Counted from the first letter of the stretch, positions 130-31,008 are shown. The stretch is 64,000 bases of DNA from Gammaproteobacteria bacterium (GCA_033852155.1 JAWSVA010000006.1:16843-80842); one strand, 5' to 3'. Numbers and translations are program-made. The notes: generated by a model not told the origin, from the sequence alone.

Positions 130-2964
130 TTAGCTAACGCTCAACATTTGCTGTAAAAATTCACCAGTATATGACCCTTTGGTGGCAGCGACATCTTCAG
201 GTGTACCTTCAGCAATAATCATTCCTCCACCTGATCCACCCTCTGGGCCGAGGTCAATTATCCAATCGGCAGTTTTAATAACATCTAGGTTATGCTCAAT
301 GATGATAATAGTATTGCCGTGTTCTTTGAGGCGGTTCAATACATCTAACAAATGTTTGATGTCATGAAAATGAAGACCTGTTGTTGGCTCATCAAGAATG
401 TATAAAGTATTGCCAGTATCTCTTTTTGATAGCTCGCGAGAAAGCTTCACTCGTTGTGCTTCCCCTCCGGATAGGGTGGTAGCATTTTGACCAAGGGTTA
501 TGTAAGAAAGTCCTACATCCATAAGGGTTACGAGTTTTCTGGAGATTACAGGGATGTGTTGGAAGAATAAGTTGGCTTCTTCAACCGTCATCTCTAGTAC
601 CTCGTGAATGTTTTTCCCTTTGTAGCGTACCTCTAGGGTCTCACGATTATAGCGTTTACCTTTACATACGTCACAGGGAACGTATATGTCAGCAAGGAAA
701 TGCATCTCTACCTTTATTACGCCATCACCTTGGCAAGCTTCGCAGCGTCCACCCTTTACATTAAAACTGAACCGCCCAGGCTTGTATCCGCGCGATCTGG
801 ATTCTTGAGTGCCGGAGAACAGGTCTCGTATATGGGTGAATAGACCAGTATATGTGGCTGGATTTGAGCGTGGTGTTCTACCAATAGGGCTTTGATCAAT
901 ATCTACAATCTTGTCGAACTGTTCAAGGTTTTCAACTTGTTTACAGGGGGATGGTGTGTGTGATGCTTTGTTGAGAATATTGGCTGCATGTTTATATAAT
1001 GTGTCATTGATAAGTGTTGATTTGCCTGAGCCGGAGACTCCGGTTATACAGGTCATTATTCCGGCAGGGATCTTTACATCGACATTACGTAGATTGTTGC
1101 CGCTGGCGCACTTGATATTGATATGCTTTTCGGGGTCTGGTTTTACCCTTTCTGCTGGGATCTCTATGCGTTTACGGCCGGATATGTAATCGCCGGTTAT
1201 GGATTTTTTACAGTTTTTGATCTGCTCTGGTGTGCCATGTGAGATGATGTTGCCACCATGTACTCCAGCCCCTGGCCCTATGTCGATAACGAAGTCAGCT
1301 GATTCAATAGCCTCTTCATCGTGCTCTACTACGATTACAGTATTACCAATGTCGCGTAGGTGAAATAGGGTTTGTAGCAAGCGCTGGTTATCTCTTTGGT
1401 GCAATCCGATCGATGGTTCATCAAGAACATACATCACTCCAACAAGTCCTGCTCCAATCTGGCTGGCAAGGCGAATGCGTTGAGCTTCTCCTCCCGATAG
1501 GGTTTCAGCGCTGCGGCTTAGTGATAGATAATCTAGACCAACATTGACAAGGAATCCTAGCCTGCTGCTAATCTCTTTCAGGATCCTTTCTGCTATCTGC
1601 CCCCGCTTGCCATCAAGGTGCAAGGATTCAAATAAAGAAAGTGCATCACCGATCGATTTTGATGTTATTGATGGGAGGTTGTGCTCCCCTATAAAGACGT
1701 TTCTTGCTCCAAGGTTTAGACGATCACCGCTACAATCTGGGCAGATCTGTGTGCTCATCTGCTTTGCTAGTTCTTCCCGTACGGTATTTGATTCTGTTTC
1801 TCTAAAACGACGTTCCATGTTAGGGATGACACCTTCGAAACGGTGGGATTTGTTGTAGCGTAAACCTTTTTCATTGTTGTAGGTGAAGTCTATTTTATCG
1901 CTGCCACTGCCATAGAGGATGATATCTTGAAATCTTTGTGGCAGGTCACAAAATGGAGTTTCTAGGTCAAAATCGTAGTGCATGGCAATCGATTGCAACA
2001 TCTGGAAGTAGTAGCCATTCTTTTTGTCCCAACGTTTGATAGCGCCACCAGCTATGCTGATGCTTTTGCTGGTTATCACCATATTGGGGTCGAAGAATTG
2101 TTTTTGCCCTAGGCCATCACAGGTTGGGCAAGCACCTGCAGGATTGTTGAATGAGAATAGTCTTGGTTCCAGCTCATTTATGCTATAACCACATTCAGGG
2201 CAGGCGAATTTTGCAGAGAAGGTGATGTCATCAGCGTTATCATCATCCATGAAGGCAATACGAATCAATCCTTCACTGTGGTTAAGTCCGGTTTCAATAG
2301 ACTCTGCTAACCTAGTTTTTATATCGTCATCTTGGCGAATTTTTAGGCGGTCTATTACAATTTCGATGGTGTGCTTTTGGTGTAACTCTAAAGTTGGAGG
2401 AACATCTAATTCATAGATAACTCCGTCGATTCTGGCGCGAATGAAACCTTGTGCCTTAAAGTTGTCCATAAGCTGGATATGTTCACCCTTGCGCTCGTTG
2501 ACAACAGGAGCAAGGATCATGATTTTCGATCCTTCTTCCATATCCATTATCTTATCCACCATCTGGCTGATGGTCTGGGCATTTAGCTCATGGTTATGTA
2601 CGGGGCATCTTGGTATCCCGGTGCGAGCATAAAGCAGGCGCAGATAATCGTAGATTTCGGTAATCGTTCCTACAGTCGATCTTGGATTGTGGGATGTGGA
2701 TTTTTGTTCAATAGAGATGGCTGGGGATAACCCCTCTATATGGTCTACATCTGGTTTTTCCATCATTGAAAGAAATTGACGCGCATAAGCTGAAAGTGAT
2801 TCAACATAGCGACGTTGCCCTTCGGCATAGATGGTGTCAAATGCGAGAGAAGATTTTCCTGAGCCTGATAGTCCGGTGATAACTATTAATTTGTCTCGAG
2901 GGATGTCTATATCGATATTCTTAAGGTTATGGGTGCGAGCACCTCGTATTTTAATAGTATCCAT
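130..2964 (-). CDS. uvrA: Excinuclease ABC subunit A
   Basis: 944 aa; N-terminal GARTHNLKN, two Walker A motifs ([16 protein letters not shown]), two LSGGEAQR signatures and zinc-finger CxxC pairs. Confidence 0.99.
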
Positions 2965-3067
2965 ATTACAACCATTTAGAATTTAGCAGGGCATGCTATG
3001 ATACCACCAGTCATGGCTGAAATTGATTTTTTTGTCGATATATTAGGTATTTCTTTGAGGTGATATA

Positions 3068-3541
3068 GTGAATAAACCAAGAGTTTGGAGTGATCCTATC
3101 CATTTTTTGGCATTTGGATTTGGTAGTGGGTTGGCTCCTAAGGCGCCAGGGACATTTGGAACTGTTGCTGCTATTCCGGTTTATTTGCTATTAAGCCTGC
3201 TAGCATCATTACCGGTTTATCTTGTAGTAACTGCGCTGTTTTCTGTTGTTGGAATTTGGATTTGTGGTAAGGCATCTAAAGACTTAGGTGTACATGACCA
3301 CTCTGGTATTGTGTGGGATGAGATTGTTGGATACCTTATCACCATGATACTGGTGCCAGTGACTTGGTATTGGATTTTAGTTGGATTTGTCTTGTTTCGT
3401 TTTTTTGACATCCTTAAACCTTGGCCCATATCAATCCTAGATAAAAAGGTCTCGGGAGGTTTTGGAATTATGGTTGATGATATTGTTGCGGGGTTATTTT
3501 CTCTTGGAGTAATGCACCTGTTGATTTACTATTTTGTATAG
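3068..3541 (+). CDS. pgpA: Phosphatidylglycerophosphatase A
   Basis: FGSGLAPKAPGTFGT, DHSGIVWDE, FRFFDILKPWPI and GIMVDD motifs. Confidence 0.97.
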   Translation: MNKPRVWSDPIHFLAFGFGSGLAPKAPGTFGTVAAIPVYLLLSLLASLPVYLVVTALFSVVGIWICGKASKDLGVHDHSGIVWDEIVGYLITMILVPVTWYWILVGFVLFRFFDILKPWPISILDKKVSGGFGIMVDDIVAGLFSLGVMHLLIYYFV

Positions 3542-5960: not shown

Positions 5961-6159
5961 ATCTTAAATCCTGTTGCTTAAATTATTTCAATCATTCTAA
6001 AAGTATAAGAAATGAGTGGTCAGTTTTCCATCGGGGGAGTGGCTTTTTCGTCCCAATAGGTTATAAAAACTATTATTACTTGCGATTGTTGCTTTTTAAA
6101 AATGGTATAGAATTTGAAAGATAACGGTATTTATTTTTAATGAAATTTGGAAATGGTTA

Positions 6160-7521
6160 ATGAAAAAGATTTTGTTGGGTTTGGGGTTATTCTTTTTGGT
6201 TCTTTCGTTTGCAGTTGTGCTTAGTTTGTATCTTTTTTTTCTAGATCCAGTTGATAAAGAGGCTGAAGCATTCTTCTTTGAAGATCAAAAAATAGTTGCT
6301 GATGAGGATAATGCATATTTTGCATTTTTAGGTTTTTTTGCGCCAGCTGAAGTAGATGATATACATGCGTATGGTCTAAAGCATTGGAATGATTTTGTTG
6401 TACGGCTTCAGGAAAGTGCTGGATCTAAAACTGAACTGAATCTATCTGATTTTTATATTGACTACAGCATAAGTATATCTGAAGAAGATAGTGATGCTGT
6501 CGGACACTTAGAGATAGATTATTATGATTGTAAGGAGAAAAATAAAACAGGTTGCATTAATGAGGAATTGGTCCAGCAGCTTGTAGATAGAAATTCAGTT
6601 TTTATAGGTAGGCTTAAGCAGCTGCATAATTATAAAGAGTACCACTCAAAAGTTCCTGGTTTTAAACTGCAAGAGATGATTAACCTTGCAAAACTGCAGG
6701 CAATGCAGGTGAGAATGTATTTAAGCCAAGGGAGGCCAGAAAAAGCATATAAGATACTATATGAAAATATTGAGTTTTTTCAGAATATGTTAACCAATGG
6801 GGTGACTATTATTGATTTAGCCATATTCAAAGTTGCACGTGCAATATATTGGCAGCAGATGGCAGGTTTGGTTCAGGATCATCCAGAGTTTGCTTTAAGT
6901 AAATATTCTGAGCTTGAAAAACTTTTTGATAGTAGTTTGCAGGTTCCTTTTGCAGAGGTTGCCAAAGCGGAGTTTTATCTTGTTAATAGTGCTTTTTGCC
7001 GAGGAGTGCAGGGTTATGGAGCTGCAGAGGTTAATTGTTTACGTAATATCAAATGGTGGTTTATTAAGCCAAATGCAATTTTAACGGGATATTATCGCTT
7101 CTCTAAAGAATTTATCGAACTTGCAAGTGTGCATCCAGCAATAATAGAGTTTGAAAGTAAGGAATTGAATGCTAAATATAATAGTGAAACAGGTACTCTT
7201 AGGGGGTGGGTTAAAAGAAAGACAACATTTGGCCGGCTTTTGAATCCAAGTTCATTAAATGCAGGTTCGTTGCTTTATATTATTGCTCTTGGTGGCTCAA
7301 GAGGAAAATCTCTATTGGCTTATTTGGAACTCTATAAAAACAAAGTGAAACCAGAGGATGTAAATGATTATATCGCTAATCACTTGGATGGATTTTATGA
7401 TCCGCTCTCACGTAAACACTTTGTTTATGATGAAGAAAAAGGGTTGCTGATGATGCATCAAGACGGATTTCCGCCTGAGATTTTGGGGGCTCAGATTCCA
7501 AATTCATTAAAGTATCATTAA
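6160..7521 (+). CDS. Hypothetical protein with an N-terminal membrane anchor
   Basis: 453-aa ORF with an N-terminal hydrophobic helix; no family recognised. Confidence 0.75.
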   Translation: MKKILLGLGLFFLVLSFAVVLSLYLFFLDPVDKEAEAFFFEDQKIVADEDNAYFAFLGFFAPAEVDDIHAYGLKHWNDFVVRLQESAGSKTELNLSDFYIDYSISISEEDSDAVGHLEIDYYDCKEKNKTGCINEELVQQLVDRNSVFIGRLKQLHNYKEYHSKVPGFKLQEMINLAKLQAMQVRMYLSQGRPEKAYKILYENIEFFQNMLTNGVTIIDLAIFKVARAIYWQQMAGLVQDHPEFALSKYSELEKLFDSSLQVPFAEVAKAEFYLVNSAFCRGVQGYGAAEVNCLRNIKWWFIKPNAILTGYYRFSKEFIELASVHPAIIEFESKELNAKYNSETGTLRGWVKRKTTFGRLLNPSSLNAGSLLYIIALGGSRGKSLLAYLELYKNKVKPEDVNDYIANHLDGFYDPLSRKHFVYDEEKGLLMMHQDGFPPEILGAQIPNSLKYH

Positions 7522-20393: not shown

Positions 20394-21428
20394 CTCGTTC
20401 CCGTGCTTCGCATGGGAGCGCATTGCTCCTTTCTTATGCGAAAATTTACGGTTTTTAAACATTGTCCACACGTGTGGACAATTTGCTGTTTTGGGTAACT
20501 GTTTGATAAATAGAGCAATCGTATTTTTCAAAACTAGCTAAAAAGATTGTGCATGCGCAATCTCTCGTTCCCATGCTCTGCGTGGGAATGCATACGTTGC
20601 TTCAAATATATCTAGACTCTCGGGAATTCTGCAAATCTCAGTTGTGTTGGAAGGATGAACCAAATTGTCGTGCTTTTTGTGTTTGTGATAATATTGATTG
20701 CGCTGTATCAAAGTTTTAATGGGTTGAATTGTTACGGTGTAATAGTTTGCATGCCATGTTTATATGAGTAAAAAATCATGAAGAAAATTTTATTAGCAGT
20801 TAGTTGGTTAAAAAATCACTGGGTTTTGCTCGGAGCACTATCCACATTTTATATTTATCTTGTGGCTTTTATATCAACATTAATTTTTTATGGCGCGTTT
20901 AGTTTGTCAATATCGCCGTATTTTGATATTGCTGATTACTTTAAAATTCTCTTAAGAGAATGGGAAGTTTTTGTCGTTCCATTTTTTGGTGTGATTGGAA
21001 TTTATATGGCGGTTATTCTGAGAAAAGCAGAGGCTGAATACAATGAAAATTGTAATGAGGAAAGTCCAAAAAGATTTTCATTAACTTACCCTTTTGTTGT
21101 AGTAATTCTTTGTCTATGCTCTATTTTTCCTCTTTTTGCAGTCAGCCAGCAAGCAGATAAGATTAAAAATGGGGCTTTTATTCTTTGTGATTTAGAATTG
21201 AGAAATGGGAAAATAAAAGGTGTTTCTGTAATTGGAGGTACAAAAAATGTACTTGCTATATACGATAAAAAGAAAGGCTATGCAACAATCATAAATATGA
21301 GCGAAGTGTTAAAGGTTGATTACAAAGGACCTAGCGAGCAACTTGTTAAGCTTAATGCCAAGCGTAGGCAGGAGCATAAAAAGAGGCTGTAGCTTTTACT
21401 CGTTCCCACGCTCTGCGTGGGAATGCAT
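20394..21428 (+). repeat. Three copies of a 30-bp REP-like palindrome CTCGTTCCCAyGCTCTGCGTGGGAATGCAT (20394-20423 degenerate, 20564-20593, 21399-21428)
   Basis: Copies 2 and 3 differ at one base; each forms a TTCCCA.GC/GCGTGGGAA hairpin. Confidence 0.85.
20778..21392 (+). CDS. Hypothetical membrane protein
   Basis: 204 aa, about three hydrophobic segments, AT-rich, lies between two REP-like copies. Confidence 0.75.
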   Translation: MKKILLAVSWLKNHWVLLGALSTFYIYLVAFISTLIFYGAFSLSISPYFDIADYFKILLREWEVFVVPFFGVIGIYMAVILRKAEAEYNENCNEESPKRFSLTYPFVVVILCLCSIFPLFAVSQQADKIKNGAFILCDLELRNGKIKGVSVIGGTKNVLAIYDKKKGYATIINMSEVLKVDYKGPSEQLVKLNAKRRQEHKKRL

Positions 21429-21490: not shown

Positions 21491-22345
21491 TTATTTATCC
21501 CGCATCTTCGCTGATTCCAGCGTATTCTCCAGCAAAGTGGCAACAGTCATTGGACCTACGCCACCAGGAACAGGTGTTATCCAGGCCGCTTTCTCTTTAG
21601 CGGTTGCAAAGTCTACGTCGCCAACCAGTTTGCCAGTTTCTAGTCTGTTGATGCCAACGTCGATTACGATTGCACCCTCTTTAATCCATTCGCCAGGTAC
21701 GAAGTTCGGCACGCCAACTGCAGCGACTACGATGTCGGCGTTGCGTACTTTTCCTTCAAGGTCTTTAGTTTTACTATGGCATACGGTGATGGTGCAGCGT
21801 GCAGCTAGTAGCTCTAGTGCCATTGGTCTGCCGACAATGTTGGATTGGCCGATAATTACTGCATCTTGTCCCACTAGATCGATGCCGATTTTTGCCAGCA
21901 TAGTCATGATTCCCTTAGGGGTGCATGAGCGTAGTAGCGGCATTCTTAATGCTAGTCTGCCGACATTATATGGATGGAATCCATCTACGTCTTTCTCCGG
22001 TAGGATGCGTTCGATAACTTGGTCGCCATCTATATGGTCTGGTAGTGGCAGTTGAACCAGGATGCCGTCGATCTCGTCATCTGTATTTAATTCATCAATC
22101 AGTACAAATAGTTCATCTTGAGTCATGGATGCTGGTTTGATAAATGCTTTGGAGATAAAGCCTGCAGCTTCACATGATTTTCTTTTGCTGTTTACATAAA
22201 CCTCTGATGCTGGATCGTCCCCTACTAAGACTACTGCTAGCCCCGGTCTGCGTAATCCTTGCTCGACTCTAGAGTCAACCTCAAGTTTGATTGATTCTTT
22301 TAGATCTATTGCGATCTGTTTTCCGTCGATTATTGTTGCGCTCAT
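21491..22345 (-). CDS. folD: Bifunctional methylenetetrahydrofolate dehydrogenase/cyclohydrolase
   Basis: [23 protein letters not shown] and [11 protein letters not shown] motifs. Confidence 0.98.
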
Positions 22346-22536
22346 GGGGGTGTCCTCAGTGTTGGTTTTAAGAATATCAGAGGTTGATGGTCTTTATCTG
22401 TTGGGTGCAATTATAGCGAAAAATCATACTAAGTGGTGGATAATTTCGTAAAAACCATCTCTCAATAGAGGAGATAAGCTTTGATAGTGTGTATAATTCT
22501 TTGTATCTGGTATAGGTGGGAGGTCAAAGGGTATAG

Positions 22537-23958
22537 ATGCTAAATCTTATGGAGTGTACCCCGATTGCACAGTTTGCGATTGGTTTAGATCATAAGATCG
22601 TTTCTCTTAACCGCGCATGTGAGTTGTTGACTGGTTTCTCTGCAAAAGAGGTGGTTGATACTGATATGCAGTGGCGCTTGTTCTATGATAACCCACGTCC
22701 GGTTTTGGCTGACCTTATTCTCGAGCAGGATTTTATCGGTTTTCAGAAACTGTATGAAGGAAAGGATCCTGGTAAATCTCCAATCGTCCCCTTTGCTTGG
22801 GAGGCTACCGATTATTTTGAAGATATGGGTGGAAAGCCGCGCTATATCTATTTTTTAGCCGCACCTATCTTTGATAATAATAATATTATGACGGGCGCAG
22901 TAACTACTTTGCAGGACGTTACCGAGCAAAAGCTGCGTGAAGCATCTATGCAGCGCGAATCTAAACTGTTACAGCAAGAGAATACTAAGCTTAAGTCTTC
23001 AATCCAAGAGCGTTACCGTTTTAGTAATATCATCGGTAAGAGTTCTGCTATGCAGAATGTCTACGATATGATTGTCAAAGCATCTGCTAACCTTTCCGAG
23101 TCCGCTAGTGTGGTTATCTATGGTGAGTCAGGAACAGGTAAAGAGCTTGTTGCTAAAGCGGTGCATGATATGAGTTCTCGTCATGATAAGCCGTTTGTGG
23201 CGGTAAACTGCGGGGCAATCCCAGAGAATTTACTTGAGAGTGCATTTTTTGGTCATGCTAAAGGCGCTTTTACTGGTGCGTATCAAGCCAAGGCTGGCTT
23301 TTTAGATCAGGCTGATGGCGGCACATTGTTTCTGGATGAGATTGGTGAACTTGATATTAATCTGCAGGTAAAACTGCTGCGTGCTATTGAGGCTAAAGAG
23401 TACTCTCCTGTTGGGCAGGCTACGGTTAAAAAATCAGATTTTTGTATTGTCGCAGCTACAAATCGAGATTTGCTTGATGAAGTAAACAAAGGTGATTTCC
23501 GAGAAGACTTTTATTATCGAATCCATGTGATTCCTATTAATATTCCGCCGCTGCGAGATAGGAAGGAAGATATTCCTCTTTTGGTAGATCATTTTCTAAA
23601 AGGTGTGGGTCTTGATATGGGGGAGTCTCCTTTGCCGGGCAAGGTGATGGATGCTCTGTATAACTATCATTGGCCGGGAAATGTGCGGGAATTGCAAAAT
23701 AGCGTTAGTCGTTATGTAACTCTCAATACTCTTGAGTTTAGAGACCAGGTGGTTGTGGAATCAAGTGATGATGGTTCTAACAGCGGGGTAGCTATTGCGG
23801 ATGATGTTGGGTATGTCGACGCTATGGATAGCTTTGAACGCTCATATATTCTAAAAATGTTAAATGATGGGCGCTGGAATAGGCGGGCAGTTGCTGACGA
23901 GATAGGGATTTCGCGACGTACACTGTTTCGTAGGATGCAAAAACTTGGGATAGAATAG
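22537..23958 (+). CDS. Sigma54-dependent enhancer-binding protein (PAS-AAA+-Fis HTH)
   Basis: N-terminal PAS ([14 protein letters not shown]), GESGTGKE, intact [23 protein letters not shown]-terminal [14 protein letters not shown]. Confidence 0.96.
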
Positions 23959-23964
23959 TCTCTA

Positions 23965-24055
23965 TGTGGGACAGATTTGTCCCGCAATGTAAAATCTCTT
24001 TATTATTAGTAATCTACAGTATTAGCTCGCCATGATGTGAGACATAAGTGTCCCA
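23965..24055. promoter_or_regulatory. Two palindromic upstream activator-like sites: GGGACA-GATT-TGTCCC (23968-23983) and GAGACA-TAAG-TGTCCC (24039-24054)
   Basis: Both share TGTG(G/A)GACA-N4-TGTCCC; centres are 71 bp apart, about 125 and 195 bp upstream of the predicted sigma54 start. Confidence 0.7.
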
Positions 24056-24143
24056 TCTGCATATTGGCGCGCTTTTATCGTTAGAAAAGTTTAATGATGA
24101 ATTTCATCAGATATTTCAGCAGTATATGGCTTCTTATCTATTG

Positions 24144-24160
24144 TTGGCACGCATATTGAC
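24144..24160 (+). promoter_or_regulatory. Sigma54 -24/-12 promoter (TTGGCAC-GCATA-TTGAC)
   Basis: Perfect -24 element with N5 spacing; -12 reads TTGA instead of TTGC; lies next to the activator gene and its candidate sites. Confidence 0.7.
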
Positions 24161-24236
24161 TAGTTATTCGCTGAATGTTTTTTAAAATATTCGGGCTAGA
24201 CATCGCAACATCGTTGTGTAGGAGCGATAAGGGTCT

Positions 24237-24491
24237 GTGAAGAAAATGATAGACGAATGCATGGTTGAGTTACTTGCTGAGTTGGATGCAAAAACAGTTC
24301 AAGTAAGTGAAACAGAGATAATTGAAGAGTGTGCAAGAAGAATCGGAGAAGAAAAATTACTTAATTTGAGCAAGGAGGAGCTCAGGCGCGAGATTCTGGT
24401 AGCCCTGGAGGCATCACCTCTATTCAGGAAAACCTATCTCAGGCCGGAGCGAGATGATCAAAATCTAAGTAAGTGTTATCTGGTCGTATAG
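24237..24491 (+). CDS. Small hypothetical protein, first gene of the predicted sigma54 operon
   Basis: 84 aa; AGGAG upstream of the GTG start; ends 37 nt before satP. Confidence 0.65.
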   Translation: MKKMIDECMVELLAELDAKTVQVSETEIIEECARRIGEEKLLNLSKEELRREILVALEASPLFRKTYLRPERDDQNLSKCYLVV

Positions 24492-24528
24492 TTGCACAGA
24501 TTTTATATAAGAATAGGAGTAAACAATA

Positions 24529-25086
24529 ATGAACGAAAAAAATTACGCCAACCCTGGGCCGTTAGGTTTGATGGGGTTTGGTATGACAACAGTTTTGTTA
24601 AATATCCATAATGCTGGATTTTTCCCTATTAGTGCAATGATATTAGCAATGGGTATATTCTACGGTGGTATAGCGCAGATCATTGCAGGTGTGCTTGAAT
24701 TTAAAAAAGGTAATACCTTCGGTGTTACAGCATTTATCTCTTATGGTTTCTTTTGGATAACGCTTGTTGCTTTGATGTTGATGCCAAAACTTGGTTGGAC
24801 TGAGGCAACTCCTCATGGGTTCATGGCTTGGTTCCTATTTATGTGGGGTGTATTTACTCTATTTATGTTTGTTGGAACACTCAAGGCGAATAAGACATTA
24901 AGATTTATATTTGGCTCATTGGCGGTATTGTTCTTCTTGCTGGCGATAAGAGATTGGACGGGTTCTGAATTGATTGGGCGCATAGCTGGGTGGGAAGGTA
25001 TTGCATGTGGTTTAAGTGCTATCTACCTTGCAATGGCTGAGGTTATTAATGAGCAGTTTGATTCGGCTCTACTGCCTGTTGGCTAG
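24529..25086 (+). CDS. satP: Acetate/succinate channel SatP (GPR1/FUN34/YaaH family), copy 1
   Basis: ANPGPLGLMGFGMTT signature, YGG..Q, SYGFFW; SD AGGAG. Confidence 0.95.
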   Translation: MNEKNYANPGPLGLMGFGMTTVLLNIHNAGFFPISAMILAMGIFYGGIAQIIAGVLEFKKGNTFGVTAFISYGFFWITLVALMLMPKLGWTEATPHGFMAWFLFMWGVFTLFMFVGTLKANKTLRFIFGSLAVLFFLLAIRDWTGSELIGRIAGWEGIACGLSAIYLAMAEVINEQFDSALLPVG

Positions 25087-25135
25087 GTTGTAAGATATTT
25101 GTTTAAGTCGCTCTAATGATAGGGCGGTAGCTGTA

Positions 25136-25210
25136 AAGAGTACTAGACCCCTGTCGAAGTTCATTACGCTCATGCTAGACCTCCCTGTAATGCACTTCGA
25201 TAGGCCTATT
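25136..25210 (+). ncRNA. Structured non-coding repeat unit 1
   Basis: AAGAGTACTAGACCCCTGTCGAAGTTCATTAC-[GCTCATGCTAGACCTCCCT]-GTAATGCACTTCGATAGGCCTATT; long stem with a 19-nt loop. Confidence 0.75.
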
Positions 25211-25317
25211 AAATTTCAAAATGTAAAATTATTAGCACCTGATGATGGCTGATGCTACTTAGGTGATTAATGATGCGTGTAATACTTGATTAAGTGCAAA
25301 ATAGGAATTAAAGATAA

Positions 25318-25875
25318 ATGAGCGAAAACAATTACGCTAACCCAGGTCCATTAGGTTTAATGGGTTTTGGAATGACAACAGTTCTGCTAAATATACACAA
25401 TGCCGGATTCTTTCCAATTAGTGCGATGATTCTCGCAATGGGAATCTTTTACGGTGGATTGGCGCAGATAGTTGCTGGAGTGCTTGAGTTTAAAAAAGGC
25501 AATACCTTTGCGATGACAGCGTTTATTTCTTATGGTTTCTTTTGGATAACATTGGTTGCATTGATTCTTATGCCTAAAATGGGTTGGATTGAGGCAACTC
25601 CAAATGGCTTCATGGGGTGGTTTCTGACTCTATGGGGAATGTTTACCCTGTTTATGTTTATTGGAACATTTAAAGCAAATAAAGCATTGCGCTTGGTTTT
25701 CTTTTTGGCGACAGTATTGTTCTTCTTGTTAGCGGCAAAAGATTTTACTGGGTTAGAAATTCTTGGTCGAATTGCAGGCTGGGAGGGTATTTTATGTGGT
25801 CTTTCGGCATTCTACTTGGCAATGGCTGAAGTGATTAATGAGCAGTTTGATGCCGCTCTTCTGCCTGTAGGTTAA
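25318..25875 (+). CDS. satP: Acetate/succinate channel SatP, copy 2
   Basis: Same signatures and same 185-aa length as copy 1; close paralog. Confidence 0.95.
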   Translation: MSENNYANPGPLGLMGFGMTTVLLNIHNAGFFPISAMILAMGIFYGGLAQIVAGVLEFKKGNTFAMTAFISYGFFWITLVALILMPKMGWIEATPNGFMGWFLTLWGMFTLFMFIGTFKANKALRLVFFLATVLFFLLAAKDFTGLEILGRIAGWEGILCGLSAFYLAMAEVINEQFDAALLPVG

Positions 25876-25932
25876 TTGAATAGAAAAAGTTTAAAAGGCG
25901 CTATTTTAGTTTAAATTAATTGGCGCTGAGTT

Positions 25933-26007
25933 AAGAGTACTAGACCCCTGCTGAAGTTCATTGCAATTATGCTAGACCTCCTCGTAATGCTCTTCGGTAG
26001 GCCTACT
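25933..26007 (+). ncRNA. Structured non-coding repeat unit 2
   Basis: CCTGCTGAAG/CTTCGGTAGG stem with compensatory changes relative to unit 1; 19-nt loop AATTATGCTAGACCTCCTC. Confidence 0.75.
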
Positions 26008-26091
26008 CCAAAAAAGTTTGATCTGAATTAATTACTTTGGTCGCTTAGTTCAAGTATCGGTCATAACTAAGTGACCAAGGTAGTTAATATA

Positions 26092-26166
26092 AAGAGTACT
26101 AGACCCCTGTCGAAGTTCATTGCGCCCATGCTAAACCTCCTAGTGATGAGCTTCGATAGGCCTACT
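26092..26166 (+). ncRNA. Structured non-coding repeat unit 3
   Basis: Continuous 18-bp stem when G-U pairs are allowed; 19-nt loop GCCCATGCTAAACCTCCTA. Confidence 0.75.
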
Positions 26167-26259
26167 TTGAATAATTAAGAATGGATATCAAGAATAGAAT
26201 TAATGACCCTAGTCGCAGGCATTTGATGTATCAGGCCTAGCGATTAGAGTGATTAATAT

Positions 26260-26335
26260 AAGAGTACTAGGCCCCCTGCCAATTTACACTGCGCCTATAG
26301 CTAGACCTCCTGTGATGCAAATTGGCAGATCTCTC
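26260..26335 (+). ncRNA. Structured non-coding repeat unit 4 (most diverged)
   Basis: Stem rewritten to CTGCCAATTT/AAATTGGCAG and still perfectly paired; 19-nt loop GCCTATAGCTAGACCTCCT. Confidence 0.72.
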
Positions 26336-26536
26336 TAGGTTTGCACCTAAAGCTTTAGCTAGGTTAGATGCTAATCGCATCACAAAACATCCGGAAAACA
26401 CCTATCCTTTTGTAGGATATATCCCCCTTAAAAATCTTGTTTTAAATTTCACTTGTTAAATCATCTTGTTGCAGGCTGTGTAAATAAGCACCTTTCCTGT
26501 TAGGATTGCGTTTTGGTACATTTATGATGAAATTTT

Positions 26537-27097
26537 ATGCTGTATAGATATGAAGTATTGAATATTGCCGCCGGCGATATATTTGTGGTTTGTAGTGCTG
26601 AAAAGTTGATTTTTACTTGTTTTGTTTATGTTGATGACGCTGGAGGAAAATCAGATACCTACTGTGGAGCTACTGGTCGTATCAAAGAGGGATTGGAGGA
26701 GTTTGGTCGATTTGCCAAACGCAAAATATTGGGTGAAATAAAAATGGAACCTGATTACCTGTTTGTGAGAAATGTGTTTGATAGGGCTTTTGTCCTTAGT
26801 GAAACAGGTGAGCAAATGCAGTGCTTTGAATTGATTGGAACAGAATTTCAAAAAAAGGTTTGGAGGGCGCTATGTGATATTCCCGTTGGAGCGACAACAA
26901 CCTATAAGAAAGTTGCAGTAAGCATTGGAATGATATCGGCAGTAAGAGCGGTTGCTAATGCCATAGGTGCTAATAATATTGCACCATTGATACCTTGTCA
27001 TCGAGTTGTTCGCTCTGGTGGCGGTCTAGGTGGTTATCGTTGGGGGGGAGAGGTAAAGAAAGCATTGTTGGAAAGTGAGGTGAAATTGCAGGAATAA
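26537..27097 (+). CDS. ogt: Methylated-DNA--protein-cysteine methyltransferase
   Basis: GTEFQKKVW, RAVANA, active-site PCHRV, LGGYRWG. Confidence 0.9.
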   Translation: MLYRYEVLNIAAGDIFVVCSAEKLIFTCFVYVDDAGGKSDTYCGATGRIKEGLEEFGRFAKRKILGEIKMEPDYLFVRNVFDRAFVLSETGEQMQCFELIGTEFQKKVWRALCDIPVGATTTYKKVAVSIGMISAVRAVANAIGANNIAPLIPCHRVVRSGGGLGGYRWGGEVKKALLESEVKLQE

Positions 27098-27374
27098 AAC
27101 CTGTTTTTAAAAAACAATGTCCTATTTTTTCAAAAGAATTCATGGTTGAGGAGCATCAAAAAGTAATCAGTTTATTTAAAAAGTATCTCGTTAATAAAAT
27201 GCTTTGCATCATTTAAAGGGGGGGAGTTCTCATTACACACTATTAAAAGCAATGAAATGAGACAATGTTACTATTCATGGAGTAGTAATGCCTGATAATG
27301 TAACTTATCATTTTGGTATTGATGTAAAGAAAATCAAACTTGATGCAATTTTTAATACTTAAAAAGGAGTAAAC

Positions 27375-27686
27375 ATGAAGATTATTTTTATGGTAATTTT
27401 ATTAGCTGGGGTATCATCTAATTTGATGGCAGCAGATTATTATAATGCAAAATTTGCAACAACTAGTGATAGCTATAGTTCAGCTACTCAAGTTGCAACA
27501 AGTAGAGCGGTGTGTCATAGAGCTACTGGTAATCTTTCTAGCTGTACTAACAAAGTGAGTTGTGGAGGGGAAACTGTATGGCCTACTTCTTCGCAAATGA
27601 AGAAATTTAAAAAATGGATAAAAAGAAGTACATCAAATGTAATGTGGATAACAGACGGTTCAAACACTGTGTGTAAAATGCGTTAA
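27375..27686 (+). CDS. Small secreted protein with four Cys
   Basis: SD AGGAG, signal peptide ending LMA, 103 aa. Confidence 0.75.
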   Translation: MKIIFMVILLAGVSSNLMAADYYNAKFATTSDSYSSATQVATSRAVCHRATGNLSSCTNKVSCGGETVWPTSSQMKKFKKWIKRSTSNVMWITDGSNTVCKMR

Positions 27687-28024
27687 AAGCCTCAAATACT
27701 CTAAAGCTTGGTTTTAGAGTATTTTAATACCCTTTCAAAAAAAATAATTGCAGAAACAATAAAAGTACTTATTTTCGATGAAATTGATGGTTTTCATCTC
27801 CAGATGATCCTATGTCTCGGCATTTAATGCAGTCCCTACGGTTAATTTAACAAGATGCCTGGATAAGGCAGATAGATTTTTTCGGATTTCATGTCATTGG
27901 CAAGTTCTTTTGCCAATATTTCAAGATAGGCCTCAAAAATATTCCTGGCAGCCGCATTTTTTACAACGGTAAGAACACGTTCATATTTCCCCATGGCAAA
28001 GTATAAGGCTGCCTGATAAGCGAA

Positions 28025-28377: not shown

Positions 28378-31008
28378 TTAGAACCAGCTCCAGCTGCTCC
28401 ACATTGAAGTCCAATCAAATACTCCTCCTGTTGAGCCTGAGTCAGTATCAGTATCGGTATCGGTATCGGTATCGGTATCAGTATCAGTATCAGTATCAGT
28501 ATCAGTATCAGTATCAGTATCAGTATCAGTATCAGTATCAGTATCAGTATCAGTATCGGTATCTCTAACTACTCTGCGATTGTTCTCAAACATGAACTGA
28601 GTAACGAATGTAGGGTAGTCAACATGGTTGTGGTCGATATAGCTGCCACCTGAACCACCGTCACCTGCAGGCCACGCGTGGCTCATGCCTGAAACCATGA
28701 TTTTAGAAACACGTACACCTTCACTATCGCTATAGGTCGTTTCAGTTCCGCCACCTGCAATGCTCATGGTTCCAGAATCTTTGGCCGCACCGTAAATATT
28801 GGCCATCGCTTCAGCGCTAAGATCAGCGTAACCCGTTGCTACTGTGTAGTCAGATGTGCCGTGTACGATTGAGGTAATTTGAGTATCAAATGAATCCTTG
28901 GTTGATCCAGCAAAAGTGTTGCAAAGGCTTACAGTGGAGCTCTCATTAGTTCCAACAGAACCGATTTGGCCAGAAGATGTGCCAATAGTTGGCCCCGCAT
29001 TGATGCCGATACCCGCAAATACATCTGGAGCAAGACATCCCATTACATGAGTTTGGCCACCACCTGATGAAAGACCTGAGATGTAAACTTGAGCCGCATC
29101 GATATTTAGGCTTGAATCGGATTTAAGTGACTCAGCAAGATCCAGTAGGTTGTCATCATGTCTGCTAGGTCTGGTTCTGCTGTGGTTTGAGTCATAGTAG
29201 TCCCAGCATCCGGCGATTACACCGCCATTAGGAGCGTCGGGAGTAGCTACAACCATTCCATATGCATCAGCAACATCCTGCCAGTTCGCATAGTTTTTCA
29301 TGTCTTCATTTTTTTGAGCACAACCATGCATGTTAATCATCAGTGCACGCTTGCCAGCAAGAACAGGGGCAGATTTTGGTAGGTATATGTGAACTTGCAT
29401 GCCAGCTATAGTTTTTGTAGACCAGCTTCCTGCAGGGATGTCGCCAGAGTTTACATCAACGTCACCAGTAGATCCGCCGCCATTGTTAGTGTTATCGCTA
29501 GAATCGCCGTCTGATCCTGAATCACCAGTGTTGTTTGTGCCGCCAGGGTTAACATCACTCCATGATCCGTTTACTAGTTGGTATAGGGTGAATGGTGTGC
29601 TTCCATATTTTGCGTTGTAGTCCAGGTACTCGTTAAGAGATAGAGTTTTATCCACATAAAAATTAACCGCAGTATCTGTTTTAGATGGCGCAACATATGA
29701 AGGAGCAGTAGTTGAGAAGGTGATCTGATTTGAAGGTTGACTTTCGTTGCCGCAATAATCAACAGCTACTGCATAAATTGTGTAGCTGGACTGTGAAGAA
29801 AGTCCAGAAGCAGTAAGAGTAGTGCTGTTTACAACTCCAGAAATTGAAGAACCATCACTTCTATATAGCTTATAACCTTTTAGATCTGCTTCATTGTTAG
29901 TTGAAACAGTTAAAGTAGCGTAATTATCATATGTTTTAGAAAGTTTTAAATTTGAAGGTGCTGCTGGTGCAGTGTAATCAGCATCACATTCGGCAGAATT
30001 ATTTACAACTTCAGAGCCATCAAATGATTTGTCTTGGAAAAAGTTCCATAATGCTTGACTAGTGCTCGGGCCTTTATCGTATGCCCATTGCTCATAACCT
30101 GAATCATCGCCACCCCAGTAATGCCCTTTGCCATATTGTCCCTCTTTGGGGCCGTATGTAGCGCCATCAAAGAACATGGTCTGTACAATAACGTTACCGT
30201 TGGAGTCTTTGTATGAGGTTAAATCGCAGTTAATACCTTCAGCGTCACAGCTCTCAACACCATCAGCGCTCTTGTTTATGCCAAATGCATCAAGGTGTGA
30301 ATCACGAATTAGCTCACCTGCAGTAATTTGAACAATCTCATCTCTAGTTGAATTAACTACTAGCATAGGTATTGGGCGATCGTCATCTAGCTCGCTTTTT
30401 ACTGCATCAGTATGTTGTGAAAGGCTTTTGAACATGTCAGATAAAACAGAAGAAGACCAGTCTCCATACGCTAATCCGGCAACAGGAGCAGCTGCGGCCC
30501 AGTATTCGTTATAGGCAATAGCGGCTGCAACAGTCATTGCGCCGCCAGAAGATAGGCCAGTAATGTATCTACGGTTAGGGTCAATGCTATATTTTGTTTC
30601 AACTTCTTTACCTAAGCTGTATAGGTCGGTAACTTCTCCAGCGCCTTCGTGTATCTCAGCGTCAAACCAGTAACCCCAGCAATTGTCATTACGCATGCCG
30701 GTATAAGAGGTTATATGAGGGAAAACAATGATCACATTGTTTTGGTCTGCAATTAGATCAAGGTTCCAGTTGTTTAGTGCGTCGGTATTGTCCATGGCGC
30801 AGCCATGAAGAGCCATTATCATAGGAACTTTTTCGCTACCAGTGTACGACTTAGGAACATAAACCTTATAGTTTCTATCGCGTGAACCTGAATAGGATTT
30901 TGCTTTAAATGTGTGGTTGTCTATGTCGCCTGATCCAGTAAGTGAGCCTGCATATGCAGTACCAGCAAGCATTGATAGTGATAAAATCACTCCGCCTAGC
31001 ATTTTCAT
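28378..31008 (-). CDS. Secreted PHB depolymerase-family esterase with two catalytic domains, an Fn3 domain and a (DT)20 tail
   Basis: Signal peptide; two LpqC/PhaZ-type domains (LHGC..GLSSGG and MHGC..GLSSGG..HG..D..HAW); Fn3 (APAAPSNL..YAVAVD..GNES). Confidence 0.88.
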   Translation of the reverse strand: MKMLGGVILSLSMLAGTAYAGSLTGSGDIDNHTFKAKSYSGSRDRNYKVYVPKSYTGSEKVPMIMALHGCAMDNTDALNNWNLDLIADQNNVIIVFPHITSYTGMRNDNCWGYWFDAEIHEGAGEVTDLYSLGKEVETKYSIDPNRRYITGLSSGGAMTVAAAIAYNEYWAAAAPVAGLAYGDWSSSVLSDMFKSLSQHTDAVKSELDDDRPIPMLVVNSTRDEIVQITAGELIRDSHLDAFGINKSADGVESCDAEGINCDLTSYKDSNGNVIVQTMFFDGATYGPKEGQYGKGHYWGGDDSGYEQWAYDKGPSTSQALWNFFQDKSFDGSEVVNNSAECDADYTAPAAPSNLKLSKTYDNYATLTVSTNNEADLKGYKLYRSDGSSISGVVNSTTLTASGLSSQSSYTIYAVAVDYCGNESQPSNQITFSTTAPSYVAPSKTDTAVNFYVDKTLSLNEYLDYNAKYGSTPFTLYQLVNGSWSDVNPGGTNNTGDSGSDGDSSDNTNNGGGSTGDVDVNSGDIPAGSWSTKTIAGMQVHIYLPKSAPVLAGKRALMINMHGCAQKNEDMKNYANWQDVADAYGMVVATPDAPNGGVIAGCWDYYDSNHSRTRPSRHDDNLLDLAESLKSDSSLNIDAAQVYISGLSSGGGQTHVMGCLAPDVFAGIGINAGPTIGTSSGQIGSVGTNESSTVSLCNTFAGSTKDSFDTQITSIVHGTSDYTVATGYADLSAEAMANIYGAAKDSGTMSIAGGGTETTYSDSEGVRVSKIMVSGMSHAWPAGDGGSGGSYIDHNHVDYPTFVTQFMFENNRRVVRDTDTDTDTDTDTDTDTDTDTDTDTDTDTDTDTDTDTDTDTDSGSTGGVFDWTSMWSSWSWF
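28441..28563 (-). repeat. In-frame 6-bp tandem repeat encoding (DT)20-D
   Basis: GATACT/GATACC units, 41 codons. Confidence 0.97.

Follow-up and report, generated by a model that had tools for sequence, protein, structure and literature searches.

The locus and its predicted promoter

This account concerns a gene cluster in a 64-kb stretch of DNA of an uncultured marine gammaproteobacterium (the whole of that stretch is called the window here) in which the gene of a σ54 activator is followed by a small open reading frame (ORF), orf84, by two satP genes, and by four copies of a structured repeat, R: R1 lies between the satP genes, and R2, R3 and R4 follow the second of them (Table 1). An earlier reading of the window from its letters alone (the original prediction) had drawn these parts together into one candidate system, and everything that it named is present at or near the place assigned to it, every part on the + strand. 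The genomes used for comparison are the window's own (G000), the rest of its genus (G001-G003) and a sister genus (G004, 85% complete).

The activator consists of an N-terminal PAS sensor, an AAA+ domain and a C-terminal Fis-type helix-turn-helix (HTH); its GAFTGA motif, which had been described as intact, is readable in the translation. Against NCBIfam it matches the named models of bacterial enhancer-binding proteins (bEBPs) only below their cut-offs. Orthologues of the activator adjoin the same operon in G001-G003, with 83-89% identity, and in G004, with 67%. The sensor domain is matched in 12 of 400 genomes of the class; the matches outside the family were considered as possible orthologues and discarded, being PAS domains in ORFs of other lengths (mostly 700-1230 aa).

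Between the activator gene and the promoter lie the two palindromic sites of the original prediction, both verified as inverted repeats; GRGACA-N4-TGTCYC repeats keep this position in G002 (in both of its modules, which are described below), G003 and G004. The -24/-12 promoter, TGGCACGCATATTGA, is the sole exact match to TGGCAC-N5-TTGM in the window. The motif alone is weak evidence (8 sites with one mismatch are found in the window and 8.6 are expected); all five genomes, and both modules of G002, keep TGGCACG...TG(A/T) 5' of their orf84. The G000 genome has both rpoN and hfq. With an AAA+ domain bearing GAFTGA, an HTH, a -24/-12 element, inverted repeats and rpoN all in hand, the locus is predicted to be a σ54/bEBP-dependent transcription unit.

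That no hairpin with a clear U tract separates the parts, as was also claimed, is borne out: the + strand intergenic regions hold no terminator-like site, and the three + strand sites of this kind that a scan finds in 23900-26600 lie inside genes, two in satP2 and one in ogt. A conserved stretch, CATCCGGAAAACACCTATCCTTTTGTAGGATAT, comes after the last R in G000 and in module 2 of G002, and module 1 of G002 has a diverged copy of it in the corresponding place (window 26340-26536; L011 5026-5220 and 8100-8160). Its overall conservation is 77%, and it might mark the true 3' end of the unit.

The 84-aa ORF is confirmed, and is conserved in 5 of the 61 related genomes compared, which belong to a single family. 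Its product belongs to no family in Pfam or NCBIfam: it has 6 clusters among 5.8 billion proteins, and its profile has 13 matches at E<=1e-3 among 1.84 billion representatives, with no Pfam family and no names for the 12 matches that were scanned. Run against metagenome contigs, the profile confirmed 0 of 489 pattern matches. The AF2 model is helical (pLDDT 73); its VIA-align matches, mostly winged-helix domains, reach Z <=5.3, which is within that tool's noise range, while Foldseek gives no match at E<=1e-3 and the best score in Atlas (0.88) is under the lead threshold. Counted from the translation, the protein is net acidic. The analogy with CcaF1 that had been drawn for it is not supported: the protein is acidic, is without DUF1127, and has weak winged-helix-like fold matches only.

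Both satP genes are confirmed by family models that cover their full length, with scores above a curated cut-off (Table 1); with the E. coli-type model PRK10659 satP1 scores 284 bits and satP2 273 bits, just under the cut-off of 297. By family model they are assigned to the AceTr/SatP (GPR1/FUN34/YaaH) carboxylate channels. Because the repeats are spaced 789-797 nt apart, satP2 is read as a duplicate of a satP+R segment, and it is because of this duplication that an R lies between two satP genes.

Table 1. Features of the locus and of the two candidate target leaders (window coordinates, except for the leaders; CM, covariance model)
Feature	Position	Strand	Description and basis
σ54 enhancer-binding activator	22537-23958	+	473 aa; Pfam: PAS_9, Sigma54_activat (218 bits), AAA_lid_14, HTH_8
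Inverted repeat 1	23968-23983		Candidate upstream activator site, GGGACA-N4-TGTCCC; ~170 nt before the -24 element; sequence reading
Inverted repeat 2	24039-24054		Candidate upstream activator site, GAGACA-N4-TGTCCC; ~100 nt before the -24 element; sequence reading
-24/-12 σ54 promoter (predicted)	24145-24159	+	TGGCACGCATATTGA; motif scan and conservation
orf84	24237-24491	+	First gene of the operon; orphan 84-aa protein
satP1	24529-25086	+	PF01184, 131 bits; NF038013 AceTr_1, 285 bits (cut-off 50)
R1	25134-25214	+	Repeat, fold, CM; inside RNA-library contigs; 96% identical to G002 orthologue
satP2	25318-25875	+	PF01184, 137 bits; NF038013 AceTr_1, 273 bits (cut-off 50)
R2	25931-26011	+	Repeat, fold, CM; 89% identical to G002 orthologue
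Inter-R hairpin	26025-26090	+	Near-perfect, ~20-bp stem, between R2 and R3; mir-9 model 29.5 bits (gathering score 58.6)
R3	26090-26170	+	Repeat, fold, CM; 84% identical to G002 orthologue
R4	26258-26339	+	Most diverged copy; CM 82 bits; 71% identical to a decaying G002 copy
Leader A	L034 (G000:C20) 2885-3104		Precedes a DUF485 gene and the gene of a 641-aa SSF symporter
Leader B	L034 (G000:C20) 6156-6425		Precedes the gene of a 504-aa DUF3360 membrane protein

R, an RNA structure under selection at a single locus

R is ~80 nt long and is made up of a 5' tail (AAGAGUACUAGACCCCUG), a 17-bp interrupted stem and a ~19-nt loop with (Y)AUGCUARACCUCC. Its conserved single-stranded motifs are GAGUACUAGACCCCUG in the tail and GCUARACCUCC, which is like an anti-Shine-Dalgarno sequence, in the loop; tail and loop share the core CUAGACC(C/U)C, which thus occurs twice in each unit. 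The four structured repeats of the original prediction are present as four copies, of which R1 (z -4.0), R2 (z -2.5) and R3 (z -5.4) fold better than their shuffles (of 200 in each case, 0, 4 and 0, respectively, do as well) and R4 does not, though its stem too is maintained through compensatory changes.

A CM made from the four window copies and run over the window and four related loci collects 15 copies at E<=1e-4: 4 in the window, 5 in G002, 3 in G003, 3 in G001 and 0 in G004. Standard pairs fill 95.2% of the cells in these copies, compared with 29-48% when the partners are slid; both sides have changed in 11 of the 17 pairs of the stem, and 0 of 500 shuffles reach its covariation score. 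(A technical note: the alignment of the 15 copies is fitted to the model, which favours the structure; MAFFT followed by RNAalifold on the four window copies arrives at the same stem, with 4 compensatory pairs.) R is therefore a real, selected RNA structure, and its functional strand is the + strand, because G-U pairs are numerous and the CM scores of the minus strand (<=26 bits) are far weaker than those of the + strand (~100 bits).

Two other readings of the repeat were tried and rejected. On the minus strand it would present GGA in a loop, as in a CsrA-type sponge; the G-U pairs then become mismatches and the fold, like the CM score, is weaker. On the + strand the AUG in the loop would open a peptide (MLDLPVM...); it has no Shine-Dalgarno (SD) sequence, at least two strong copies (R4 and L011:9041) are without the AUG, and the changes in the 3' arm track pairing.

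The R unit is under purifying selection. R1-R3 are 84-96% identical between G000 and G002 (Table 1), the coding DNA of satP2 is 83% identical, and the spacers flanking R are 49-62% identical (49-56% around R1), the hairpin-bearing R2-R3 spacer reaching 79%. Within the unit the stems drift and the loop and (in strong copies) the tail are constant, and this is the pattern of a base-pairing or recognition RNA and not of a mere hairpin. A separate observation is that the start of the activator gene, AUGCUAAAUCUUAUGG (22537-22560), is similar, when read in the same sense, to the loop of R, AUGCUAAACCUCCUAGUG; the resemblance is probably due to chance.

In the interval 22000-28000 a search of Rfam 15 with E<=1 gives no family for the R units; its three matches there are all sub-threshold miRNA models lying on the inter-R hairpin. 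A sequence similar to this hairpin occupies the same position in G001-G003, that of G002 differing by one compensatory pair and two mismatches, and the hairpin is a candidate processing site, possibly for RNase III. The letters right after the R stems are CCUAUUAAAU, CCUACUCCAA or CCUACUUUGA. A terminator scan finds no intrinsic terminator at any R, and consensus scans of the + strand, which are weak tests, find no σ70-like promoter and no second σ54 site before the R units. R is judged to be a new RNA family.

In the whole G000 genome, searched by BLAST and by CM, R is found at this locus only, and throughout the genus (4 of 4 genomes, G000-G003) it is restricted to the syntenic folD/activator/orf84/satP/R/ogt locus, every copy co-oriented with the operon. 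A repeat scattered over the genome with no tie to satP or the activator, the outcome that would have undone the original prediction, is thus not what is found. The number of copies per genome in the genus runs from three to seven. G001 and G003 have a single satP followed by three R units; G002 has two full modules, in each of which inverted repeats and a TGGCACG...TGA promoter recur. Between them the modules contain three satP genes and seven R units, of which two are decaying and one is placed between orf84' and satP. DNA contigs of strains skip and re-order R and satP units. Farther afield, the CM finds 0 matches in 149 genomes from other families of the class, and the exact two-motif pattern occurs in 3 records of metagenome-assembled genomes (MAGs; titled 'Gammaproteobacteria bacterium') among 185,579 species genomes and in none of the metagenome contigs.

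The sister genus keeps the activator, orf84 and satP, without canonical R. The region 3' of its satP (fold z -5.4) opens with a hairpin, after which AACCUCCUCC is left single-stranded; then come a stem of 17 bp, whose loop is rich in CA, and a final hairpin. The 5' arm of the 17-bp stem, CCUGCCGGAUUCAUUGCG, resembles R stems, and the element is probably a diverged homologue of R.

Is the unit transcribed? DNA of the lineage is present in four runs labelled plastisphere metagenome, and parts of the stretch are present in two small metatranscriptomes labelled plastic metagenome; contigs from metatranscriptome and metagenome runs were aligned to 23900-26700. Two RNA-library contigs from a ~91%-identical relative, one covering 24219-25212 and 25312-25478 (1261 nt, word depth 41.5), the other 24321-25208 and 25281-25379 (1061 nt, depth 39.9), between them connect orf84 with satP1, R1 and the beginning of satP2; in them the spacer between R1 and satP2 has diverged letters and equal length. 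RNA contigs of the exact strain cover 24203-24350 at depths up to 159, and a 171-nt RNA contig (depth 4.3, from one run) contains the inter-R hairpin and R3, ending at 26164, where the conserved unit has its last base. These contigs represent abundant RNA and not contaminating DNA, because by our arithmetic a 3.1-Mb genome at depth 40 exceeds the 12-14 million letters of a run. R2, R4 and the satP2-R2 junction have no RNA cover in the two RNA runs, which is not evidence of absence.

The RNA contigs start at 24203 and 24219, 3' of the promoter; the two runs have none upstream of 24203, and the relative's DNA contig does extend upstream, a weak hint. All of this fits a transcript that starts after the -24/-12 element and reads past the satP1 stop into R1 and satP2. 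The original interpretation, of which a single transcript is one element, is partly supported: contigs join orf84, satP1, R1 and satP2, and internal promoters and terminators were not found; satP2 and R2 are not bridged. The opposite outcome, that transcription ends at the satP stops, is contradicted at the satP1 stop by the bridging contigs of a close relative; beyond satP2, R2-R4 have one low-depth contig, over R3 only. An observation on the 5' side belongs here: in one exact-strain RNA contig (depth 122) Illumina adapter letters stand immediately before 24203, which therefore marks a frequent fragment end ~32 nt 3' of the transcription start expected from the -24/-12 element. It is possible that 24203 is a processed 5' end in the orf84 leader.

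Candidate targets and competing explanations

R loops and tails were scored against a crude set of 3939 translation-initiation regions (TIRs) of the genome. The best loop duplex is with a nuoG-like TIR (-32 kcal/mol with R1; rank 1 of 3939 by the mean over four units); this candidate was rejected because its extended pairing is specific to G000: a 2-nt insertion interrupts it in G001 and G002. Feedback on the activator's own TIR (rank 8 of 3939 for the loop) was not retained either, since pairing is confined to its SD, GAGGUC, and to G000 and G002. A weak possibility is that the tail acts on the TIR of orf84, as autoregulation; the duplex has -12.1 kcal/mol and ranks 360 of 3939, and its contiguous complementary bases number 8 in G001 and in G003 and 6 in G000.

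The tail points to two other sites. Matches to at least 10 nt of the reverse complement of its 16 nt occur at 8 places in the genome, and two of these, 3.2 kb apart on G000:C20, a contig other than that of the R locus, lie in homologous leaders (A and B, Table 1). The site in leader A, UAGGUGUCUAGUACU (L034 3070-3084), ends ~20 nt before the ATG, just 5' of the SD, and pairs with the tail at 14 of 15 positions (duplex -20.3 kcal/mol); the site in leader B is GGUCUAGUAC, at L034 6273-6282. Leader A heads an operon whose SSF symporter has MctC and ActP as its nearest models, both below cut-off. The two leaders have an identical TTGACA-17-TATAAT promoter (this promoter-leader combination occurs in the genome only twice) and a common covarying hairpin with the loop GCGUCAGGAGG, which is complementary to CCUCC(UG) of the R loop. 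They are conserved as a leader type in G001-G003, Rfam has nothing relevant for either of them, and they make a candidate new cis-regulatory leader in their own right.

The complementarity to the tail is itself conserved. KGTCTAGTAC stands at the orthologous position of leader A in G000, G001 and G002 (3 of 4 genomes) and of leader B in G000, G002 and G003 (3 of 3; the leader B gene was not found in G001 or G004). Outside the R units this 10-mer has 4-7 sites per genome, and 0 in G004. When R units and leaders are cofolded, the helix between tail and site forms in 8 of 8 combinations. Over the four R units, leader A has net gains of -7.3 to -8.7 kcal/mol, and leader B of -9.7 to -14.1 kcal/mol; for 330 control 5' regions cofolded with R1 the mean is -4.1 and the minimum -12.5, so that 0 reach the leader B value (-14.1). 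The R tail thus has the properties of a conserved seed with conserved complementary sites, as a prediction. In G004 the CCUCCUCCCUCC tail cofolds with the SD and start of that genome's own DUF485 gene (-14.0 kcal/mol), which is suggestive only: an anti-SD tail would bind many TIRs. If this pairing is real, the link between satP and the symporter is older than either sequence solution to it.

A scheme can be put together from these elements. The activator would bind the two inverted repeats and, on receipt of its signal, open the -24/-12 promoter, giving a single σ54 RNA, orf84-satP1-R1-satP2-R2-R3-R4. Endonucleases would free the R units (the AU-rich spacers and the inter-R hairpin are candidate places of cleavage), or the units would at least act, as base-pairing RNAs in trans; R species of ~80-170 nt would be expected, with 5' ends at or just before AAGAGUAC and 3' ends near GGCCUA. 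Through GUACUAGACC the tail would bind GGUCUAGUAC / GUGUCUAGUAC in the two σ70-type transporter units, whose 5' leaders are long, and the CCUCC loop could dock on the AGGAGG loop of the leader hairpin or on SD sequences. Turning on the SatP operon would in this manner re-tune rival carboxylate uptake systems, most likely by repression. At leader A occlusion is the simplest reading, because the site is just 5' of the SD; at leader B the opened basal stem could act in either direction.

On balance we think it somewhat probable that the R array is an operon-embedded array of small RNAs (sRNAs) of the 3'-untranslated-region (3'-UTR) type, working like CcsR1-4 or NarS and lying outside the cuckoo family. 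The original prediction had the transcript yield processed sRNAs that repress other mRNAs: a conserved candidate target set now fits action on other mRNAs; read-through into R2-R4, processing into discrete sRNAs, action in trans, repression and the signal (putatively acetate) we infer. A more ambitious version is tentative, and to our minds rather doubtful: a σ54-gated transporter switch, in which one RNA would provide both passive SatP channels and an sRNA array that silences or re-tunes a constitutive, energy-coupled ActP/MctC-type symporter operon and the DUF3360 transporter. Its hold on the leaders would be a two-site grip, the tail invading the basal stem or the TIR-proximal site and the CCUCC loop "kissing" the AGGAGG hairpin loop.

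Several observations weigh against an sRNA array with these targets: 1) The fold of R4 is no better than that of its shuffles (z 0.08; 106 of 200 do as well). 2) The scan finds no terminator 3' of R4 that would define the 3' end of the unit. 3) RNA support for R2-R4 comes down to the single 171-nt contig of depth 4.3, the other RNA run having nothing there, and contigs give no ends, strand, level or proof of single molecules. 4) The gain for leader A (-8.7 kcal/mol) is unexceptional, 15 of the 330 controls being as low, and its site is degenerate in G003 (GUUGUCUAGUUGU). 5) The leader B site is within a predicted basal stem and not freely accessible. 6) The 10-mer is not over-represented (8-11 per genome, compared with 12-18 for its reversed control). 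7) The link to these targets was found post hoc, other candidates having failed.

If R serves merely to protect or apportion the mRNA that carries it, why are its stems free to drift and its tail and loop fixed? A role in cis only--as intercistronic and 3' stem-loops against 3' exonucleases, or in the differential decay or processing of a polycistronic RNA--accords with long stable stems, with the placement of every R immediately behind a coding gene (15-50 nt behind satP or, in G002, behind orf84'), with the want of a promoter or terminator of its own, and with the presence of R1 inside RNA contigs of mRNA length. A stabiliser, however, needs a stem and has no call for two single-stranded motifs that never vary; three to four copies in tandem, ~160 nt apart, exceed what protection requires; and complements of the tail are kept across the genus in the leaders of two other transporters. 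We consider a purely cis role, the main rival, unlikely.

The core that each unit carries twice, in its tail and in its loop, might instead make the array a decoy or sponge for a sequence-specific RNA-binding protein or RNase recognising CUAGACC(C/U)C, a factor that it would titrate while the operon is on. Sponges such as CsrB/RsmZ and CrcZ are typically multi-copy arrays. The factor could be orf84, which is co-conserved with the array and has weak winged-helix-like matches (Z <=5.3, below the noise guidance); its product is net acidic, however, and without a known RNA-binding family, and G004 keeps orf84 yet differs in its C-rich element. No candidate for the binding protein emerged, and a CsrA sponge, with its GGA loops, would have to be read on the minus strand, against both the G-U pairs and the CM scores. 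A sponge is, in our estimate, quite improbable.

Still less probable, indeed very much so, is the suggestion that each R is an independent sRNA gene with a weak promoter of its own, in the manner of Qrr, and is merely a neighbour of satP. In G000 and G002 a TTAATAT box does precede R3 and R4, at a distance of 2-4 nt, and conservation begins sharply at the tail; the box is missing before R1 and R2, however, + strand scans find no σ70-like or -24/-12 site before any R, the spacers are poorly conserved, and RNA contigs run from the hairpin into R3 and from satP1 into R1. That the repeats are without function, or are a selfish repeat resembling repetitive extragenic palindromes (REP) or miniature inverted-repeat transposable elements, is scarcely credible, since for all the variation in copy number and order among strains and species (seven copies in G002, two of them decaying) they occupy one locus per genome in 4 genomes and are not dispersed, always take the orientation of the operon, evolve by compensation and are conserved above the neighbouring coding DNA.

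Two observations concern the surroundings. On the minus strand, window 28378-31008 encodes an 876-aa protein with a hydrophobic N-terminal stretch, two Esterase_PHB (polyhydroxybutyrate (PHB) depolymerase) stretches (107 bits), fn3 and a long C-terminal (TD)n repeat; its gene is syntenic beside ogt and the satP operon in G001 and G002. This suggests that the substrates of SatP may be polymer breakdown products (3-hydroxybutyrate, for example), instead of or besides acetate; in view of the plastisphere runs, the abundant operon RNA and the nearby secreted PHB-esterase enzyme, the operon may bear on the uptake of such products. On the other side of the locus, a palindromic REP-like element, TTCCCACGCTCTGCGTGGGAATG, at 20568 and 21403, flanks a 204-aa ORF (20778-21392) and has 10 matches genome-wide (both strands counted, <=2 mismatches).

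Comparison with known systems

Among the literature matches listed (titles and abstracts) there is no satP-linked sRNA array and no σ54 activator of satP; the only satP-adjacent RNA among them is the dnaK motif, which lies upstream of satP in Enterobacteriaceae and is unrelated. The closest working likeness is the one that the original prediction had named, ccaF1-CcsR1-4 of Rhodobacter sphaeroides, in which RNase E releases CcsR1-4 from an mRNA that encodes a small ORF, by cutting in its 3' UTR (PMC8034643). The cuckoo RNAs are described as 2-4 adjacent hairpins, each with CCUCCUCCC in its loop (PMC4615179). The ccaF1-CcsR1-4 and R loci (PMC8034643, PMC4615179) are alike in placing a small ORF before homologous structured RNAs with C-rich, anti-SD-like single-stranded motifs, and cuckoo RNAs and R are alike in the compensatory variation of their stems, in a fixed motif and in duplication-prone clusters.

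The differences are as follows. The promoter of the R locus is of the σ54/bEBP type and that of CcsR is RpoHI/HII; transporter genes stand between ORF and RNAs at the R locus, unlike ccaF1-CcsR1-4. An R unit is one long hairpin with a 5' tail, where cuckoo RNAs have 2-4 hairpins; its loop is GCUARACCUCC(Y), and CCUCCUCCC is in none of the 15 aligned copies. (The G004 element does have CCUCCUCCCUCC, in its single-stranded 5' tail and not in a loop.) The orf84 product is acidic and without DUF1127, whereas the CIN1 context has an adjacent DUF1127 small protein. The host of R is a gammaproteobacterial MAG lineage; cuckoo RNAs are alphaproteobacterial. Judged by its loop, hairpin layout, neighbouring small protein and model matches, R is not a member of the Cuckoo/CcsR (ar14) family.

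NarS (from narK), OppZ and CarZ are 3'-UTR-derived sRNAs of transporter operons and act on other mRNAs (PMC7038943, PMC7398697). R would be like the NarS/OppZ type in arising from the 3' part of a transporter mRNA, in having no promoter of its own, and in its predicted pairing with another transporter mRNA of the same physiology. NarS, OppZ and CarZ are reportedly single sRNAs that end at the operon terminator and depend on Hfq and RNase E; R, in contrast, comes as 3-7 paralogous units, some of them between cistrons, with no terminator found.

The Qrr1-5/LuxO system of Vibrio is the familiar case in which a σ54 promoter and its activator produce near-identical sRNAs that act additively or redundantly. 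Each Qrr stands alone, with its own σ54 promoter and terminator, whereas at the R locus one promoter would serve mRNA and array together. Only the σ54/bEBP input is common to the two, the pairing of R with the activator TIR being at the level of the SD and not conserved.

In E. coli the 5' ends of OmrA/B pair near the yjcH TIR and repress yjcH-actP (bioRxiv 10.64898/2026.06.26.734639). The likeness to R is that of a conserved 5' end directed near the start of a DUF485 gene heading a monocarboxylate symporter operon, the pairing of R being predicted; the sRNAs are unrelated in sequence, origin and regulator.

The predicted pairing of GUACUAGACC with GGUCUAGUAC can be tested without culturing the organism. 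If the sRNA reading is true, R would wire together two classes of short-chain carboxylate uptake, the channel and the ion-coupled symporter. As a new RNA family it would then, after the cuckoo RNAs of alphaproteobacteria, be a rare second case in which an sRNA array of several copies is cut out of an operon that codes for proteins, and the first such array to be tied to SatP channels and a σ54 activator.

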